64,000 nucleotides of DNA from a virus (Duplodnaviria; Caudoviricetes). The notes under the pieces are model-generated. The model was not told where the DNA came from. It did not search any database and worked only from the letters and a program-made list of their open reading frames with translations. Of the stretch, positions 15,313 through 48,584 are shown one piece after another; position 1 is the first letter of the stretch; every line of letters begins with the position of its first letter. A program made the position numbers and the translations under genes. The stretch spans positions 1 to 64,000 of IMG/VR virus record IMGVR_UViG_3300013121_000016; one strand, written 5' to 3'.

Positions 15313-15632
15313 TAGAATACCTCTTTGCCGTTTCATCTCAGAAACGAGTCTTTCTCGACCTCAGATGCTAACTTGATTGGTTTGGTATGGGTTAGCTTTG
15401 ATAGGCCAGTATAGGCCAGATGCCTTATCCGGCGTACAAAGATACGATTGTCTATGCGCACTTTCCAAATTTGAGGCGTATAAACTTTCTGCTGAGCTTC
15501 TTTATCGGCCTCGTCCAAAATGAAGGGGAGCCCTTCGGAGATAAACTCCAGTAGCTCCCCCTCTTGAAACTCGCCGGTTTGGTGCTCTCAGTCAGTATAG
15601 ATCCTGACCTTAGCTCCTTTACGTTTACGCAT
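15312..15632 (-). CDS. Hypothetical protein, 106 aa with 2 TGA=Trp
   Basis: MRKRKGAKVRIYTD[W]...FLR[W]NGKEVF*; read-through gives a TAATG overlap with polA. Confidence 0.7.
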
Positions 15633-39691: not shown

Positions 39692-39839
39692 AACTCTTAC
39701 GGAGCTCTTCACTGCCACTAAGCCCGCCTCCTCGACTGAGGCAATTTCTCCACTTAATGAGAAGGTAGCGACCGCTCTAGATCATCTCCTCAAACCGTTC
39801 CTTCCTCAAGAAAACGAAATCACTGATGACACTATCTAA
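39558..39839 (+). CDS. Gln-rich hypothetical protein
   Basis: Operon-packed ORF. Confidence 0.5.
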   Translation: MQKSQKGPAKASSVSQENLQQLIQSQMIQQQMQHQNHQLHLDTLKTLTELFTATKPASSTEAISPLNEKVATALDHLLKPFLPQENEITDDTI

Positions 39840-40215
39840 TATTACTCTTACTGGAGACAGGGTACTCATCGCACTAGATGAGCATCCTACTCACACTGTT
39901 ACTAAAGGGAATATAGTTGTGCCGCGTTTTGAGCAAGGAGTCACAGAAGGAGGTAAGCCTCGATCTGATTTAGATTCGAGAAAACACCTCTCAGTAGGGA
40001 CAGTGGTCGCTATTTCGCCCTTAGCGTCCAAGCGAATGTCTGAGGAAGAGACTCCCCTCCGCCCTGGAGACAGGGTTTACATATCGGCTACGGCTAATAA
40101 TATCTCATACCAATTTATATCTGATCGTTCGCGCTTAGTCGTGGACTTTGACGGCCTGATCGCCGTGCCTCATAATTATATTGAGGCAATTGTAAATACA
40201 CCAACCAATGGCTAA
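39826..40215 (+). CDS. groES: Co-chaperonin GroES-like
   Basis: LTGDRVLI, TKGNIVVP, GTVVAI, LRPGDRV. Confidence 0.75.
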   Translation: MTLSNITLTGDRVLIALDEHPTHTVTKGNIVVPRFEQGVTEGGKPRSDLDSRKHLSVGTVVAISPLASKRMSEEETPLRPGDRVYISATANNISYQFISDRSRLVVDFDGLIAVPHNYIEAIVNTPTNG

Positions 40216-40522
40216 TAAAGCTCTCAGTGCTGCACAACTTCAAAAGCAAGTTGCAGACCTTCAGGCAGCTCTTGCGTCTTCAGAGAAATTGGCTGCCGAT
40301 CGCGGCCGTCTTCTCGAATACGTTGCTAATCTTTTACTTGAGATTCAAAACAAGTTCTCTAACTCCCCTGTTCTTACAAATCTGCCCAAGAAAGTTAACT
40401 TTTGGTGGCTCCTTACGAACTGGCGTGCAGTCTTAGAGTTCATCGAGTTTGTAGTTCTCAAGATTAAAGAGTTCATCAAGAATGTAAAAGTTCAGCCTAA
40501 TCCAGATGCTGCTGCTCAATAA
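40208..40522 (+). CDS. Coiled-coil hypothetical protein
   Basis: Heptad N-terminus, amphipathic C-terminus. Confidence 0.6.
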   Translation: MANKALSAAQLQKQVADLQAALASSEKLAADRGRLLEYVANLLLEIQNKFSNSPVLTNLPKKVNFWWLLTNWRAVLEFIEFVVLKIKEFIKNVKVQPNPDAAAQ

Positions 40523-41009
40523 TTTTGATCCGTTCGAAGATTTCTGGGCCACAAACCCGCAGCTAAGAATCCTCTTTAAGGAGGAGTACGATGCGAAAGT
40601 TCCATCTTCTCAGATGTGGGCTGTGGCTCTCTTCGTCCATCCATCTTCTAAGCTTTTCAATGAATCGCCGGAGAACCGCAAAAAACTTATTCTAAGTGAT
40701 TATCTTAATGATCCTTCTTTTGATTTTGATTCGCTTTCTCCAACAATTGATAAGTTTAAAAGACTAGTGCTCACGAAGGCGGAGCTTCTTCTCTCTAATT
40801 GGGAGAAAAGAATGTATGATCGCGAAGCCTTCCTAGACTCGGTTCCTTACTCGCCAGACACTTTCGACATGATCGAAAAGATGGTTAAGGAAACTCCTAA
40901 ACTCTGGCAAAACCTCTTTCAAATTCAGACTGCTCTGTCAAAAGAGCAAGATACTAAGGTTGAAGGAGATATTGAGGAGTCACTTTCTGAGAAAGGACTT
41001 CTCGACTAA
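40506..41009 (+). CDS. Hypothetical helical protein (possible terminase small subunit)
   Basis: Upstream of the packaging genes; C-terminal VEGDIEESLSEKG. Function is inference. Confidence 0.5.
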   Translation: MLLLNNFDPFEDFWATNPQLRILFKEEYDAKVPSSQMWAVALFVHPSSKLFNESPENRKKLILSDYLNDPSFDFDSLSPTIDKFKRLVLTKAELLLSNWEKRMYDREAFLDSVPYSPDTFDMIEKMVKETPKLWQNLFQIQTALSKEQDTKVEGDIEESLSEKGLLD

Positions 41010-41254
41010 GGGCCTGATCCTGGACATCTTTGGTTAGTTGTAATCTTTAAATGACGAATCGCTTTCTTTTGCTGCCTCAATCCCCTCGTGGGCCGTGACT
41101 TACATCCAGGCAGCTCCGCTCACCTCTACAGCGGATGACCAAGTAGAGGCACCCGAACTCCTCGAAGTTTTAGTATAGTCATTACCCTTTACACCTTACT
41201 AGCTTAATCGCCCTCTAATCAAACACGCGGGTTCGACTCCCGCCAGGTCCACCA
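41010..41254 (+). ncRNA. ssrA: Minimal tmRNA (245 nt)
   Basis: Acceptor GGGCCTG/CAGGTCC with G3-U, ACCA end, T-arm GCGGG-TTCGACT-CCCGC, helix TTTGGTTAG/CTAATCAAA, H-type pseudoknot 41116-41149, tag-like frames. Confidence 0.85.
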
Positions 41255-41334
41255 AAAGCTTGCCAGCTATAGGGGGAGATTGATTAACGATCGCTCCCCC
41301 AAAGAATAACCGTTCACTTTTAAATTTTTTGCTT

Positions 41335-41436
41335 ATGTCCTACATTCAGGGGGTTTTCAACCACTGTGCACCGACGTGTCTGCTCAACGATCATCGCCGC
41401 GATGTCCCCCAGCAGCCACCCGGTAGTCGGGTCTAA
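41335..41436 (+). CDS. Possible 33-aa small ORF between tmRNA and tRNA
   Basis: MSYIQGVFNHCAPTCLLNDHRRDVPQQPPGSRV*, AT-rich start context. Confidence 0.35.
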   Translation: MSYIQGVFNHCAPTCLLNDHRRDVPQQPPGSRV

Positions 41437-41523
41437 CCTTTAATCCGCTTCAAGGCTTTGGCAGATCAAAAAGTTGATCGCTTTACGGGGTAAGGGCGCT
41501 GTAATAGTGCCCTGCCCCACTAT

Positions 41524-41597
41524 AGGGTGGTAGTTCAATAGAGTTAGAATGACGGTCTTCAAAACCGTAGATGAGGGTTCGAGTCCCTACTGCCCTG
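41524..41597 (+). tRNA. Opal suppressor tRNA-Trp(UCA)
   Basis: Cloverleaf; anticodon arm ACGGT-CTTCAAA-ACCGT (TCA at 41559-41561); A1-U72 and G73 as in tRNA-Trp; short variable loop; CCA not encoded. Confidence 0.92.
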
Positions 41598-41614
41598 CTA
41601 ATTTAAACTTTGCT

Positions 41615-42131: not shown

Positions 42132-42373
42132 TGGAAATCACTATTTATTTTGAAGCTATTGATGAGGACACTCTTGGTAATGGGCGCACGATGGTAGCCA
42201 TCGACGTTCCCTTGGCAAGGAACGTCGAGGACTTCGACAAAGTACTTGACTCTCAATTCTCAAACTTCAAGATGCGCCTCCTTACCGAGCTCTATAAAAA
42301 GTACCCCCACTACTGGCATAAGAATTCACCGATCGAACACGATAAATTAAAATCACTAGAAACGAATGGCTAG
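42131..42373 (+). CDS. Hypothetical protein
   Basis: TAATG overlap. Confidence 0.55.
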   Translation: MEITIYFEAIDEDTLGNGRTMVAIDVPLARNVEDFDKVLDSQFSNFKMRLLTELYKKYPHYWHKNSPIEHDKLKSLETNG

Positions 42374-43979
42374 AAAAGTCATATCAGGACAAGAACTACA
42401 GGACGGATTATCAAGAGGAGTCGACATCCTTGCCGACGCTGTAGGTTCAACCCTGGGCCCACTGGGCCGAAACGCTATTATTGAGACTCCTTACGGAGCG
42501 ACTACCGTGACTAAGGATGGAGTGACAGTGGCTGAGCTTATTGATCTTGAAGATCCTATCGAGAACCTTGCTGCTCAGATCCTTAAGCAAGCTGCACAGC
42601 GAACAGCCAAGGTTGCCGGAGACGGCACGACCTCTGCTACAATTATTGCGCAAACTCTCTATCAAGAAGCCCGCAAGCTTATTACGTCTGGAGTAGCTCC
42701 GATTCACATCAAACAGAGCTTCGAGCGGTTCCTAACCCAAGTTATTCCGCTCATCAGAGATAAGTCTTTAGAGGTCTCTACCAAAGAGGATATCTATCAG
42801 ATTGCTCTCATCTCAGCTAATAATGATGCGCATATTGCCAGTCTTATTGCTCAGGCAATGGAATATGTTGGAAAGGATGGGACTATTACATTAGAGGAGT
42901 CAAAGACTGGGACCACTGAAGTTACACTTGTTGATGGTTACGCTTTCGAGCGTCCTTACGCGTCTCCCTATTTTGTTACTAATCCTGCGAAAGGCGAAGT
43001 AGAATTGGATAACCCACTCATTTTCATTACAGATAAGAAGCTTCGCTACACGCAAGAGATTATTCCTATCCTGGAACTTGCTCACGCCAATTCTCGTCCA
43101 CTGCTGATTATTGCTGATGATATTGAAGGCCAAGTCTTACAGACCTTAGCAATCAACAAGATCTCCGGGACTATTAAAGTATCAGCCTGCCGTGCACCTT
43201 CGTATGGTGAGAATCGTCTTCAAGTCTTACAGGATATTGCAGCGCACACTTCTGCTACTGTTATCTCAGAGTCTTCGGGCCAGCGCATTGAAGACACTAC
43301 TTTTGAACAACTAGGCGAAGCTGCTAAAGTTCGTTCAACTCGTAACGAAACTATTATTATTGATGGAGCTAAAGATGAAGCACGTACTGAAGAGCGCGCA
43401 GAGCAAATCAGACTTGCTCTTAAAGACTACACCGGTGACTCTTATTACCACAAGCAATTACAAACACGCCTCTCGAAACTCACAGCCAAAGTGGCTATCC
43501 TACATGTTGGAGCAGCAACGGAAACTGAACTCAAAGAGAAGAAGGCGCGAGTTGATGATGCACTCCGAGCTACGACGTGCGCTGTCCAAAAAGGATATGT
43601 TGTAGGTGGTGGTACTCTTCTTGCTAAACTTTCAAAACAATTTGCAAATGAAAACGACATCATATCGACAGTTTTCGCCAGAGCTCTTTCGGCGCCGCTT
43701 CGCAGAATTGCTCAAAACGCTGGCACATCCCCGGATCTCGTCCTTGCGAAAGTACTTGAGGAAAAGAATGAGTTTTATGGCTACAACGCGTTAACTAACG
43801 AGTATACTGACCTAATTGTTGCCGGGATCATTGATCCTACCCTGGTCGTTGAACAAGCACTACTTAACGCAGTCTCCGCTGCAAACATGCTAATTCTATC
43901 TGCTACTGGTATCTACAACATAGACCGCACGCCGCCCTACTCTCCCGGTAATTTAGGAGACTTTCAGTCAGAAGAATAA
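42366..43979 (+). CDS. groEL: Chaperonin GroEL
   Basis: TLGPLGRN, VTKDGVTVA, AGDGTTSAT, GAATETELKEKK.RVDDAL.AT, GIIDP; no GGM tail. Confidence 0.96.
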   Translation: MARKVISGQELQDGLSRGVDILADAVGSTLGPLGRNAIIETPYGATTVTKDGVTVAELIDLEDPIENLAAQILKQAAQRTAKVAGDGTTSATIIAQTLYQEARKLITSGVAPIHIKQSFERFLTQVIPLIRDKSLEVSTKEDIYQIALISANNDAHIASLIAQAMEYVGKDGTITLEESKTGTTEVTLVDGYAFERPYASPYFVTNPAKGEVELDNPLIFITDKKLRYTQEIIPILELAHANSRPLLIIADDIEGQVLQTLAINKISGTIKVSACRAPSYGENRLQVLQDIAAHTSATVISESSGQRIEDTTFEQLGEAAKVRSTRNETIIIDGAKDEARTEERAEQIRLALKDYTGDSYYHKQLQTRLSKLTAKVAILHVGAATETELKEKKARVDDALRATTCAVQKGYVVGGGTLLAKLSKQFANENDIISTVFARALSAPLRRIAQNAGTSPDLVLAKVLEEKNEFYGYNALTNEYTDLIVAGIIDPTLVVEQALLNAVSAANMLILSATGIYNIDRTPPYSPGNLGDFQSEE

Positions 43980-46219
43980 TGATTTTACCTTCTAATCCTA
44001 AAGATTTCTTACTTAAAGAAATTCCAGATTTCCATCCTCTTTCTGCATCTTGGGCTGCTTTCTGAAGAGAGCAGTATCGATACTGCAAGGAGGGCTATTG
44101 GGTGGGTGGCACTTGAATGCCGCCTGCCCTTTACTATTATGCGAACTTTGGAACTATTAAGAAGAACATAAAGTTTTCCTCAGCCAAAGTTTACGATCGA
44201 CCAGACCTTCGAGATCTGGAATGGGACCTCTTCTATCACTACAGTGAAGCAAGAGGTTTTTCTGGTTTTAAGTATGATGACGTTTATTCGTCACACAGGA
44301 TACTACTTGATCCTGACGTAACTGACGATTTTTTACTTCTTAATCTTCCTGAGACACTTAATTCTAAGGGAGAACGTAAGACATATGTGCCTGCGCGAGA
44401 TTACATGCGCAAGCTACATCCCACCGCTCTTGGCCCACCGCTCTTTGACAACGAGAAGAAGAACCTTATGCTTCTCGGCTCTCGTGACTTAGGTAAGTCG
44501 TTTGCTGTCGGTGTAGGGATGGTTGGTCACATGTTCCTCTTTCCGCCCGCTGCCAATCACACCAAACGTATTCCTACTGAGGTTCTAGTTGGAGCATCTA
44601 TTTCTGACAAGTCTCGAGATCTTCTAAAGAAGACTAAAGACTCTTTTGACTTCCTTCCGGGTAAGCGCACTATCTCTGGTCGCACTTACCCTTCGCCATT
44701 TTATAAGCAGTACTCTGGCTCTTGGTCAGTAAACTCGGATATAAAGGCTGAATATAAGAAGAAAGTGGATGGTCGTTGGGATACTGTTGGTAGTCGTGCT
44801 GTTATTAAACACAGGTCCTTCAACGAGAATCCGTTTGCTGCTCAAGGTACCCGCCCCGACCTTATGGTCATTGAAGAAGCAGGTATGGCTCCCGAGCTTA
44901 AAGACATTTATGTTCACTCAGTGGATGCTCTTCGTCGCGGTCTTACCAAGACTGGTACTCTCCTTGTACTTGGTACTGGTGGTGACATGGCTAAAGGTAC
45001 ACTTCCAGCCTCTGAAATGTTTTACGAGCCTGAGAAGTACGACTTCCTGGCTTTTGAAGACATTTATGAGCAGCGCGGCAAGATATGTTACTTCATACCA
45101 GCCTACTATTCGCTTGATGAATTCCGTAACGCTAATGGATATGTTGATGTAGAGAAGGCGACTAAGAAACTTCTCAATGTACGTAAGCTCAAAGGAGGCG
45201 ACTCGGGTGCGTCTACGGCACTCGATATGGAAATGCAGTATCGTCCTTTGGTGCCGTCAGAGATGTTCCTATCTAAGACAGCAAACATCTTTCCTTTTGC
45301 GGAATTGCGTCGCCGCCTCTCGGAAATACAAGCTACCTCTACTTACGAGAAACTAGAAAAAAAGGTAGATCTGTTCTTCGATCCGTCGGCCAAGTCCTAC
45401 AACGGAGTATCTTACGAGATTAACGATAGACTTAATCCAATTACTACGTTTCCTTATGATGGAGACGATAGAGAAGGAGCTGTTGTTATTTACGAGTTCC
45501 CACAGCTTATCGACGATAAAGTACCGCAAGACGCCTACATTATTGGTTGTGACCCGTATAAAGATGATACACAGGAAGGCCAATCGCTCGCCGCAATTTA
45601 CGTCGTAAAAACCTCGAAGTACTTCTCCACTATCGGTCACGATGAGATAGTTGCTTCATATATAGGACGCCCATACATGGGTAAAGTGATTGTGAATGAG
45701 ATACTTCACAAGCTGTCACTATTTTACGGCAACGCCAAGATTTACTTCGAGAACTCAGTGGGTAATGTCAAAGATTACTTTGAGCGCGTTACGCGCCTAG
45801 ACTTACTTGCAACACAGCCCACGACTCTTTTCAACAAGAAGGCTTCCTACAACACTTCTCCGACACTTATTTACGGTTATCCCATGCCCAATCAACGAGT
45901 TAAGTGGGAGGCGCTCCAGTACTTGCGTACGTGGCTTCTTACCGACCGAGGTGATGGTAAGCGCAATTTAGATCTCATATCTGACCCAGCGCTTCTTCAA
46001 GAGCTAATCTCCTTTAACCTTGACGGCAACTTCGATAGGGTGATGGGCTTGGTGGGTTGCGTTATTGGACTGGAGGAAACCTTCAACCACACAAAACGAT
46101 CACAGGAGCGAGAAGTATACTCTTCAGCTCTTGATTTAGAGATAATATCAAAGCTTACAAATAACAAAGCTTTATTCTATGAAAACTTTCCCAAAGCAAA
46201 GACTTCCATATTCGCATAA
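43979..46219 (+). CDS. Terminase large subunit, 746 aa with 2 TGA=Trp
   Basis: PDFHPLS..WAAF[W]REQ...EGYWVGGT[W]MPPALYYY (TGA 44063, 44114); GSRDLGKS, IEEAG, GTGG, GCDPY, NFDRVM. Confidence 0.93.
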
Positions 46220-48584
46220 GATAGCAAAGGATTACAAGTGGGCTAAGGAAGTGATGAACCATCTACTCGAGAATTTCACACTAGACTCCACTGCTGTAAA
46301 CGCTTTCCAGACCGATTACCATAGGAAGCTTTCTAACTACCAACTTTACAATAATCAAATTAATCAAAAGGACTTCGAGCGTGAATGCAATCCACTAGGA
46401 CTAGAGGTCGGTCAGATCGCTGACGAAATACAGCCTTATAATAAAGGTAACAACAAGATTCAGGTCATCCTTGGTGAGGAACTCCGTCGCCCATTCAACT
46501 TCCGTACTATCTTAGTTAATTCAGATGGAATTCGCTCTAAGATGATGTATCGCGACACCCTACTTCGCAAGTTCGTGGAGGATCAAGTTCAACAGGTGTT
46601 GTCATCTCTTTCGCAGATGTACGATCAAGAGAGACTTCAAGAAGAGACAGAGAAGATACTTAACCCCAAAGAAATAGAACGCTACATGTCGACGTCTTAT
46701 TTAGATGCGCGTGAGCAGCTGGCAGCTAAAATGCTACGTTATCTTCTTCGTTCCCTCGATATACAAGATAAGCGCAATGACGCTTTTAAGCACGGGCTCA
46801 TCTCTGGTGAAGAGGTTGTCTATGTAAGCGTGCAGAATGAGCAGCCTGTGCTCGAGATTATCAATCCTCTAGGGTTCTTCTATCACAAGTCTGCTGAGAC
46901 TAAGTGGATTCAAGACGGACTTTACGCGGGCTTCCGTACTTACCTTTCACCTGCTGAGATCATCGATCGATACGGTCAATACCTTTCGGAAAAAGAGCTT
47001 AAGGACATTGATTCAGCTCTTTCAGCATTCCACGACTCTGATAACGCAATCTCGCGCTCTATGAATTATGGACACGATCAGTTGCTTAAAGTACAGCTAG
47101 ACCTCACCACGCAAGGTTCTTACTCGGATTCCTCTATCGAGGATTATCTCGTTGAGCACATAGAATGGGTGTCTCAGCGCCGCATCGGTTTTCTAGAGAT
47201 CACTTCTCCAGACTCCGAGCCAGTGACTGATATGGTGTCAGAAGACTTTCCAATTCCTACTTACGCCACATCTCGCACCGAGACTAAGGAGTACGGCAAA
47301 AAGTGTACTTACATCGAGTGGCTTGACGAGTTAGGCAATGCCTACTCGCTTGAGTGGGGATGAATCCCAGAAGTATGGGAAGGTGTGCGCATTAACCGTA
47401 ACATCTATTGCTGCATTGGTCCTAAAAAGGAGCAGTTCCGTTCAACGGACGATCCTTATACAGTTAGACTCGGCTACCATGGTCTTGTCTATAATGCGAT
47501 GAATGCTCCATCTATTGCTATGATGGATCGCATGAAGCCTTTCATCTATCTTTACATGATAGTGATGCATAAGCTGAAGCGGCTAATTGCCCAAGATCAA
47601 GGTAAGGTGTTCCACTTCGATATATCGATGGTAGATCCTAAGATAGGTCTAGAAAAGACGCTCTACTACCTTAAGGAGATGAATCTTGACATCTTTAATC
47701 CGCTTCAAAATGCTGACCAGCCCGGTCAAATGCAGCGCGGTAAAGTGTCTTCGTCTACGGATATGTCTAACACACAACATATTCTTAATTACGTGTCTTT
47801 ACTTGCTGCTATCGATCAACAGATCGCTGAGGTTGCAGGTGTGACTCGTCAACGCGAAGGACAGATTTCCCCTAATGAAGCTGTAACTAATGCTCAGTCT
47901 AACGCGCAAATGTCATCTGTAATCACTGAGATTTATTTCTACGCGCACGACCGGCTTTGGGAGAAAGTCCTCACTTCACTTCTGCAAGTTACACAAGCTG
48001 CCTGGAAAGGTAAGTCAATAACCAAGCAGTACGTTCTTGATGATCTTTCCCTAGCTACCCTCGAAATATCTGCAGATCAAGAGTTCGAAGAGATAGGAGT
48101 GTTTGTTACTAACTCTGGACATGAAGTACAGATGTTCGACGCGCTCAAAGGTATATCTGATGGTCTACTGAACACCAACCGCGCTACCTTCTCTGATCTT
48201 ATTGCGCTCTATCAAGCAACTTCTGCCGAAGAACTCAAGGACCTTATTAGACAATCCGAGAAAGAATCCTTCGATCGCGAAATGCAGAAACAACAGCAGC
48301 AGACTGAAGCACAAGCACAGATGCAGCAGCAACAACAAGCTTTCGAGCTTGAGAAACAACAGCGTGAATTTGAGCACGACGTTCTCATACACGAGATTGA
48401 TTCTTTTAAATTCCAGAAAGATCAAGACTCTAATGACAATCAGATACCTGATCAGCTTGAAATTGCGAAGCTAAAACTGGACGCAGCGACAAAGCAAAAG
48501 AAACTTCAACTTGAAGAAAGAGCCCTTGATATCAAGGAGAAAGAAGTCAAATTAAGGGCAAAACAGAGCTCCACAAAGAAATAG
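46179..48584 (+). CDS. Portal protein, 801 aa with 1 TGA=Trp
   Basis: LEWG[W]IPEVWEGVRI across TGA 47361; ILGEELRRPF, AGVTRQREGQI; follows terminase. Confidence 0.9.

Follow-up and report, generated by a model that had tools for sequence, protein, structure and literature searches.

The region at positions 41010-41254 of the phage DNA analyzed here raises a twofold question: can an RNA of only 245 nt be a genuine tmRNA and, if so, which of its overlapping reading frames encodes the tag? The window, i.e., the whole stretch of 64,000 nt under study, opens a complete IMG/VR record of 103,169 bp with direct terminal repeats, of which it covers the first 64 kb. An initial annotation had proposed a miniature phage tmRNA with tRNA-Ala-like ends, one evident pseudoknot, and alternative tag frames, one of them switched by TGA read-through: frame (a), opening at 41047 and running over 43 residues to LEVLV; frame (b), opening at 41046; and frame (c), opening at 41181 and giving ITLYTLLA. 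The landmarks of this proposal are all in place (TGAs at 41052 and 41136, UAG at 41176, and UAA at 41205), and the three frames translate as claimed.

The TerL of this phage (44117-46219) shares 34% identity with its counterpart in Cellulophaga phage phi14:2, a crAss-like phage, while gut crAss phages match more weakly; judging from these TerL relatives, the host is probably a member of the Bacteroidota. DNA identical to that of the window phage is found in an activated-sludge metagenome, and a search of public sequencing runs listed none with RNA of this phage. Upstream of the tmRNA lie a GroES-like gene (39826-40215) and two small genes, the second of which (40506-41009) ends with a TAA stop one base before the tmRNA start. 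A tRNA with anticodon UCA, a Trp-like opal suppressor (41524-41598, + strand; called by ARAGORN, 55.7 bits with the Rfam tRNA model), lies 270 nt downstream of the tmRNA and is not part of it; it is 78.5% identical to a phage tRNA-Trp. Then come a GroEL-like gene (42366-43979), TerL, and the portal gene (46179-48584), whose reading frame is split by a single TGA at codon 395. Phage GroES-like and GroEL-like genes thus flank both the tmRNA and its neighboring suppressor tRNA, an order that is kept across the clade. No ORF of at least 50 codons overlaps 41010-41548 on either strand. A strong hairpin, GGGGGAG...CUCCCCC (41272-41300), stands 18 nt past the 3' end of the tmRNA with no U-run behind it and may be a processing or termination signal; a scan for promoters and terminators gave results at chance level. 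The phage genome carries neither smpB nor an integrase gene.

The anatomy of the RNA (+ strand throughout) is that of a tmRNA reduced to a few elements. The acceptor 5' strand GGGCCUG (41010-41016) forms seven of seven pairs with CAGGUCC (41244-41250); this stem includes G3:U70, the alanine identity pair, and covaries in related phages. The 3' strand continues with the discriminator A (41251) and a genome-encoded CCA ending at 41254, and is preceded by the T-arm GCGGG-UUCGACU-CCCGC (41227-41243), so that the tRNA-Ala-like ends of the annotated 245-nt RNA are borne out. An att-site remnant was considered and rejected, as the tRNA-like domain is complete in its two halves and no integrase is encoded by the phage. 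P2 is formed by UUUGGUUAG (41029-41037) and CUAAUCAAA (41215-41223), with 9 pairs including one G-U and a duplex energy of -6.6 kcal/mol; the minimum-energy fold instead allows pairing with 41200-41205. Between P2 and a GAC triplet at 41053 there are only 15 nt, without a PK1. Downstream, a helix-5-like hairpin (41071-41114) pairs GCUGCCU (41071-41077) with AGGCAGC (41108-41114), has an extra inner CCC/GGG stem, and appears in the unconstrained minimum-energy fold; within it, UCA AUC (41077-41082) occupies the place of the canonical UAA UAA. This hairpin is abutted by an H-type pseudoknot (41115-41149), whose stems are S1 (41115-41120 with 41130-41135, -8.5 kcal/mol) and S2 (41123-41129 with 41143-41149, -9.3 kcal/mol). 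Interleaved perfect stems of at least 13 bp were reached in 16 of 1000 dinucleotide shuffles, in keeping with the one evident pseudoknot of the initial annotation, and this pseudoknot is likely the counterpart of PK2. PK3 and PK4 are absent, the 36 nt between the UAG at 41176-41178 and P2 containing no predicted stable helix.

Whether such an RNA is recognized depends on the threshold applied. Default ARAGORN reported only the tRNA and left 41010-41254 uncalled, and Rfam at its gathering threshold (47 bits) likewise listed only the tRNA in the window; the tmRNA model RF00023 matched the T-arm alone (18.5 bits, E 2.5e-5, model positions 346-363). Once the ARAGORN threshold was lowered to 95% or 90% of its value, 41010-41254 became the sole call in the 103-kb genome, and identical ends were returned at 80%; in 20 composition-matched shuffled genomes (2.06 Mb), ARAGORN gave one standard call. 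Furthermore, we searched phage loci totaling about 1 Mb, some related to the window and others not, with a strict tRNA-like-domain pattern, which also finds the window gene. The matches were nearly all tmRNA genes, apart from second 5' starts sharing one 3' end and one putative 161-nt match in locus L094. We conclude that 41010-41254 is a real, heavily reduced tmRNA gene lying only just below the ARAGORN threshold. In practical terms, default ARAGORN and Rfam thresholds overlook genes of this sort.

Relatives of this gene were sought at the same position in other phages. A TerL scan of viral contigs yielded 56 related loci, and the order GroES-orf167-[tmRNA]-GroEL-TerL is conserved among these environmental crAss-like phages. 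The strict tRNA-like-domain search identified nine distinct tmRNA genes in the slot after orf167, namely those of the window, L004, L006, L013, L025, L029, L038, L051, and L053 (L004 and L030 were merged as one, as were L006, L008, L009, L011, and L057). Five relatives pass RF00023 over the full model (L013, 76 bits; L025, 70.4; L006, 62.9; L004, 53.4; L051, 49.2), showing that the slot holds real tmRNA genes. The check with Infernal, Rfam, and ARAGORN that the annotation had called for thus leaves the window gene below both defaults, with ARAGORN calling it at 95% of threshold and five relatives passing Rfam. The slot tmRNAs are mostly 246-261 nt long. The slot is without tmRNA in 11 other lineages and also in the two closest complete genomes by TerL, which makes the gene sporadic and dispensable.

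Other searches did not extend this family. blastn of the window region and of the L013 tmRNA against GenBank phages returned no tmRNA match. Pattern scans of viral_contigs for a resume motif followed by a 3' tRNA-like end recovered contigs known already, chance tRNAs, and a small number of canonical tmRNAs from unrelated phages; when the upstream protein was used to scan metagenomes, one locus emerged, without tmRNA. A covariance model built on the tag-helix 5-PK2 module of the relatives (short model R1) misses the window, L053, and other divergent members.

Several loci of the family show rearrangements of their own. The tmRNA of L025 (3718-4105) reaches 385 nt because some 125 nt are inserted past the tag stop, ahead of P2, and still scores 70 bits with Rfam. 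In L053 (2589-2702), a tRNA-like piece repeating the first seven bases of the tmRNA stands directly upstream of it, and in L013 (2427-2450) the T-arm and acceptor 3' end occur again about 540 nt downstream of the tmRNA; both extra pieces may have been left behind when the tmRNA gene was duplicated or recombined. L051 carries a group I intron (15375-15596; Rfam, 61.8 bits), and GroEL or TerL is interrupted or stretched in several relatives (L040-L042, where GroEL and TerL matches are split, and L046:2280-5312), which suggests introns or inteins.

The relatives share one architecture, TLD-P2-(hairpin in the place of PK1)-resume-tag-helix 5-PK2-P2, with a P2 longer than that of the window. PK3, PK4, and the canonical stop have all disappeared, and the tag frame crosses helix 5 and PK2 to stop 22-28 nt later, as in the example DNSYADALIVPENSTSYVSQEVEILELVYA. 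Covariation, another check named in the annotation, was examined in four relatives: pairing reaches 98.4% across P1, the T-arm, the helix-5 hairpin, S1, and S2, both partners differ in 9 of the pairs, and sliding the partner by 1-3 columns leaves 44-52% pairing. Double changes occur in both S1 and S2, and the helix-5-equivalent hairpin shows a compensatory change. L053 departs from the common layout in having about 17 nt between P2 and the resume codon, without PK1, ahead of a 54-codon frame. As L053 has reached this state independently, it and the window represent two lineages without an equivalent of PK1.

This family allows the resume site to be placed. On L013, Rfam aligns its consensus resume region (AAUAAuU GCa AAC) with AUAAAU GAC AAC at high posterior; at low posterior, it places helix 5, whose loop normally contains stops, on a stop-free small hairpin and the first PK2 helix on UCUACC/GGUAGA. 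The corresponding 8-mer of the window, UAAAUGAC (41048-41055), comprises the resume context UAAAU and the GAC triplet (41053-41055); four relatives carry it unchanged, whereas in L053 UAAAU is followed by CGC. UAAAU also stands directly before the resume codon called by ARAGORN in unrelated canonical phage tmRNAs with ...AA tags (L070, L082, and L090). The frame anchored on this motif is stop-free in six lineages, that is, in all those where the motif can be placed, and the other two frames contain 3-6 stops; the probability of such an open frame is 0.09-0.30 for each lineage, and the lineages are not fully independent. Furthermore, the elements of the window follow one another as in the relatives (motif, a larger helix 5, then abutting S1 and S2), and the S2 landmarks UCU-AC and GUA-GA lie in the same phase at distances differing by 33 and 6 nt.

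From this alignment and phase, the resume codon is most likely the GAC at 41053. Frame (a) is therefore the conserved frame, and its canonical-like start, lost stop (lost in the relatives as well), and LEVLV end stand as annotated, while the start moves two codons downstream and leaves 41 codons (41053-41178; DESLSFAAS...APELLEVLV, UAG at 41176-41178). The predicted tag has seven acidic residues and no basic one and would end in LEVLV rather than with a (Y)ALAA-type protease signal; a YTLLA-stop is present downstream, 1 nt out of phase. The interior of the frame has no significant sequence similarity to the relatives, and the case for frame (a) thus rests on the motif, the order of elements, and the phase. 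Indeed, peptide similarity is marginal (p ~0.02 against L006 and L053, not significant against the other four), the length of the window frame is unremarkable (reached by 410 of 2000 shuffles), and the third codon-position bias is weak. The long frames end with UAG or UAA, the stops that a phage with recoded TGA would require, in seven of the nine genes, a count in which the stops of L038 and L029 were read by eye and that of L025 is not included; the longest frame of L051 ends with UGA.

Frame (c) (41181-41207, AUU...GCU UAA) was then compared with the relatives, none of which has a separate downstream mini-frame of this kind. Instead, window positions 41150-41214 align to the 3' end of the relatives' tag with scores reached by only 2, 0, and 5 of 3000 shuffles (p <= 0.002), and the alignments to L004, L013, and L006 each require a single-base gap near 41168-41176, a gap that shifts the frame and creates the UAG of frame (a). 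In the phase of the relatives, the window reads ...V-I-T-L-Y-T-L-L-A-stop against ...V-Y-A-stop; the leftover length differences are whole codons within an imperfect 9-nt repeat, which makes the alignment ambiguous. Since frame (c) aligns to the tag 3' end and is offset by one nt from frame (a), the two look like parts of one ancestral frame, and frame (c), annotated as a resume site in its own right, appears from these alignments to be the displaced ancestral tag end (...Y-x-L-x-A-stop). The 14 of 18 nt at which its stretch TACACCTTACTAGCTTAA was said to match the end of the E. coli tag were confirmed by our own count. A compact tmRNA noted in another phage, with NDNSNVAFALAA-stop as its tag, would fit a history of stop loss. 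The 1-nt shift reflects a genuine deletion or else an error in the assembly; an independent assembly, probably from the same sample, matches exactly and shows no variants, with 41140-41167 uncovered. Aligned in this way, the three annotated frames look like one ancestral long frame and a 1-nt shift.

The second part of the initial annotation concerned the genetic code, and the recoding itself is well founded. Read with TGA as Trp, the portal gene gives a single PHROG portal profile match, unbroken from 8 to 793 of 827. Among 65 distinct in-frame TGAs in the TerL, GroEL, and orf167 of the relatives, 32 fall opposite a Trp in the proteins of the window and 16 further ones opposite Tyr or Phe. 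These alignments, together with the portal gene, which requires the recoding, indicate that the clade reads TGA as Trp. With table 11, long ORFs cover 90.7%, yet single in-frame TGAs join several late genes; beyond the window, such genes are seen at genome positions 68444-72574, 79320-95432, and 95426-100018. Many other ORFs terminate with TGA, so that the reassignment could be partial or timed. An in-frame TGA is present in every one of the nine tmRNA carriers, in the portal gene for the window and in TerL, GroEL, or orf167 for the other eight, compared with 4 or 5 of the 11 slot-covered lineages without tmRNA (there is one TGA in L021 but none in its near-twins L023 and L024). This co-occurrence, whose statistic ignores shared ancestry, hints at a functional link. 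Five of the nine carriers have a tRNA(UCA) close to their tmRNA. The clade has two different suppressor tRNA designs: that of the window is a 75-nt Trp-like class I tRNA, and those of the relatives are 94-98 nt with a long variable arm (L006:5503-5596, L004:4412-4509, L025:5447-5540, and L038:1977-2070), called as SeC by ARAGORN and silent with the Rfam tRNA models at threshold.

The best explanation of these data, to which we give a probability of about 60%, is a genuine reduced phage tmRNA belonging to a lineage-specific family of TGA-to-Trp-recoded crAss-like phages, resuming at the GAC at 41053 and adding a tag of about 41 residues that ends in LEVLV, frame (c) being its displaced former end. 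The data show the anatomy, the family, the conserved frame, and the recoding; for processing, charging, tagging, the fate of the tagged proteins, and the link to recoding, we infer the following course. The tmRNA would be cut from a transcript that also bears the upstream gene, with RNase P expected to make the 5' cut. Host AlaRS would charge it with alanine through G3:U70, and the SmpB delivering it to stalled ribosomes would be that of the host, the phage encoding none. Translation would resume at GAC, directly past UAAAU, and, since the helix-5 stop is gone, the ribosome would read through helix 5 and the remaining pseudoknot before releasing the acidic tag at the UAG at 41176. The likely benefit to the phage would be the freeing and recycling of ribosomes during infection, and these could include ribosomes driven past host UGA stops by the phage suppressor tRNA.

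The strongest competitor of this explanation is an RNA that no longer tags, either as a decaying gene or as a decoy that binds SmpB or the ribosome and would act, if at all, by competing with host tmRNA. The scores below both the Rfam and ARAGORN thresholds, the lost PK1, the short P2, and the tag end frameshifted relative to the family are all compatible with decay, as is the dispensability of the gene in close relatives, and the TLD-only RNA of mycobacteriophage DS6A, which inhibits host tmRNA, provides a precedent (PMC4131195). A decaying or decoy RNA would nevertheless hardly be expected to keep a perfect tRNA-like domain with its encoded CCA, a resume motif identical to that of the relatives, a perfectly paired helix 5 and pseudoknot, and a 41-codon frame that is still open and retains a UAG end. 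Moreover, the independent L053 has almost no spacer before the motif either, and yet opens a 54-codon frame. We therefore regard loss of tagging as unlikely.

It is less probable again that the RNA encodes a conventional short tag, in which case the pseudoknot would be PK1, translation would resume at the AUU at 41181 after UAGUC, the tag would be ITLYTLLA, and the long frame would stay untranslated. UAGUC is the resume context of E. coli, the tag end resembles YALAA through the 14 of 18 nt mentioned above, and the relatives have, by eye, a UAG-type pentamer 9-13 nt past the pseudoknot, which is the usual spacing between PK1 and the resume site; very short natural tags are also known (PMC11915505). 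In the relatives, however, such tags would be only 4-6 codons long and would start with non-G resume codons, and the spacer of the window would be 31 nt. Rfam puts the resume codon on the upstream GAC and the pseudoknot helix on PK2 rather than PK1. A short tag would furthermore leave the conserved UAAAUGAC and the stop-free upstream frame of six lineages unexplained, and frame conservation, as seen above, belongs to the motif-anchored frame (a) and not to (c), whose mini-frame is the window's alone.

Last, a code-dependent tag, in which translation resuming at the UUU at 41046 would stop at UGA after two codons early in infection and, with the UCA tRNA present, would give a 53-residue tag ending in ITLYTLLA, is highly improbable. 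In its favor, the clade does read TGA as Trp, the suppressor tRNA is 270 nt away, AAAUGA is conserved in five members, and TGA is the sole stop type over 28-64 codons of this frame. However, the frame (b) peptides obtained with TGA as Trp in five relatives are basic, Cys-rich, and unconserved with unrelated ends (RNWSS, SLRLN, and QLLND), L053 has no TGA at that position, the conserved landmarks belong to frame (a), and the UAAAU|GAC resume motif suffices to explain why AAAUGA is conserved. The read-through switch proposed in the initial annotation is thus not upheld, and no link was found between recoding and the choice of a tag frame.

A genuine reduced tmRNA, as preferred here, can be set against the known forms. 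With the bacterial one-piece tmRNA (RF00023), it shares the tRNA-Ala-like domain with G3:U70, the T-arm, the ACCA end, and a closing P2, an A/U-rich resume context followed by a G-starting codon, helix 5 then a pseudoknot after the tag start, and a tag start reading NDES.. where the canonical one is ANDEN... It differs by its length (245 nt versus about 360), by the absence of PK1, PK3, and PK4, by a P2 of only 9 bp, by its LEVLV end in place of ...LAA, by a score below threshold, and by a frame that crosses helix 5 and the pseudoknot over about 41 codons instead of the usual 10 (PMC11915505). PK1 is otherwise the pseudoknot best kept among natural tmRNAs. In E. coli, tmRNAs with PK2-4 replaced by single strands, or with PK1 replaced by a hairpin, continue to tag. 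Since these engineered forms with few pseudoknots still tag, a natural minimal form is plausible; the reduction is natural in the phage, and the window and L053 do without even a hairpin in place of PK1.

Phage-borne tmRNAs have been described in cluster C mycobacteriophages (Bxz1 and others) and in Bacillus phage G (PMC4131195), and a 2025 tmRNA database lists forms without a coding part and tags of 2 residues, next to the usual tag of 10 residues (PMC11915505). Like these phage tmRNAs, the window gene is a phage-borne ssrA with no smpB of its own, and some of them are reduced as well; with the TLD-only RNA of DS6A, strong reduction of a phage-borne form already has a precedent. Unlike DS6A, the window keeps a coding part, and a very long one, and unlike the mycobacteriophage and phage G tmRNAs, it resides in environmental crAss-like phages with probable Bacteroidota hosts. 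As for recoding, crAss-like and other phages reassign TGA or TAG in late genes and carry suppressor tRNAs. The window phage shares with them the in-frame TGA in the portal and other late genes and an encoded tRNA(UCA); we have not found it described that a tmRNA neighbors the suppressor tRNA or that it co-occurs with recoding, a literature search for tmRNA biology in crAss-like or recoded phages returning methods mentions only.

Beyond the preferred explanation, a bolder reading would be that a recoded crAss-like lineage has remade its tmRNA into a minimal one-pseudoknot rescue RNA whose frame crosses helix 5 and the pseudoknot on purpose, adding an acidic tail of 30-57 residues in place of the host degron, so as to clear ribosomes that the suppressor drives past host UGA stops as far as mRNA ends; we advance it tentatively, as rather doubtful. 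Within that reading, it is similarly speculative that two lineages work without PK1 and that rescued proteins are marked in a way unlike host tagging, or are left undegraded. On the evidence of its sequence and its family, the window gene is nonetheless a new, extreme form of tmRNA and a candidate rescue RNA. If this is true, a tmRNA with one pseudoknot, which is itself translated, would set a lower bound for trans-translation, and the phage would alter the fate signal put on rescued proteins. Furthermore, that only recoded members of this clade carry the tmRNA leads to a testable idea, namely that recoding creates a rescue burden and that the phage pays for it.
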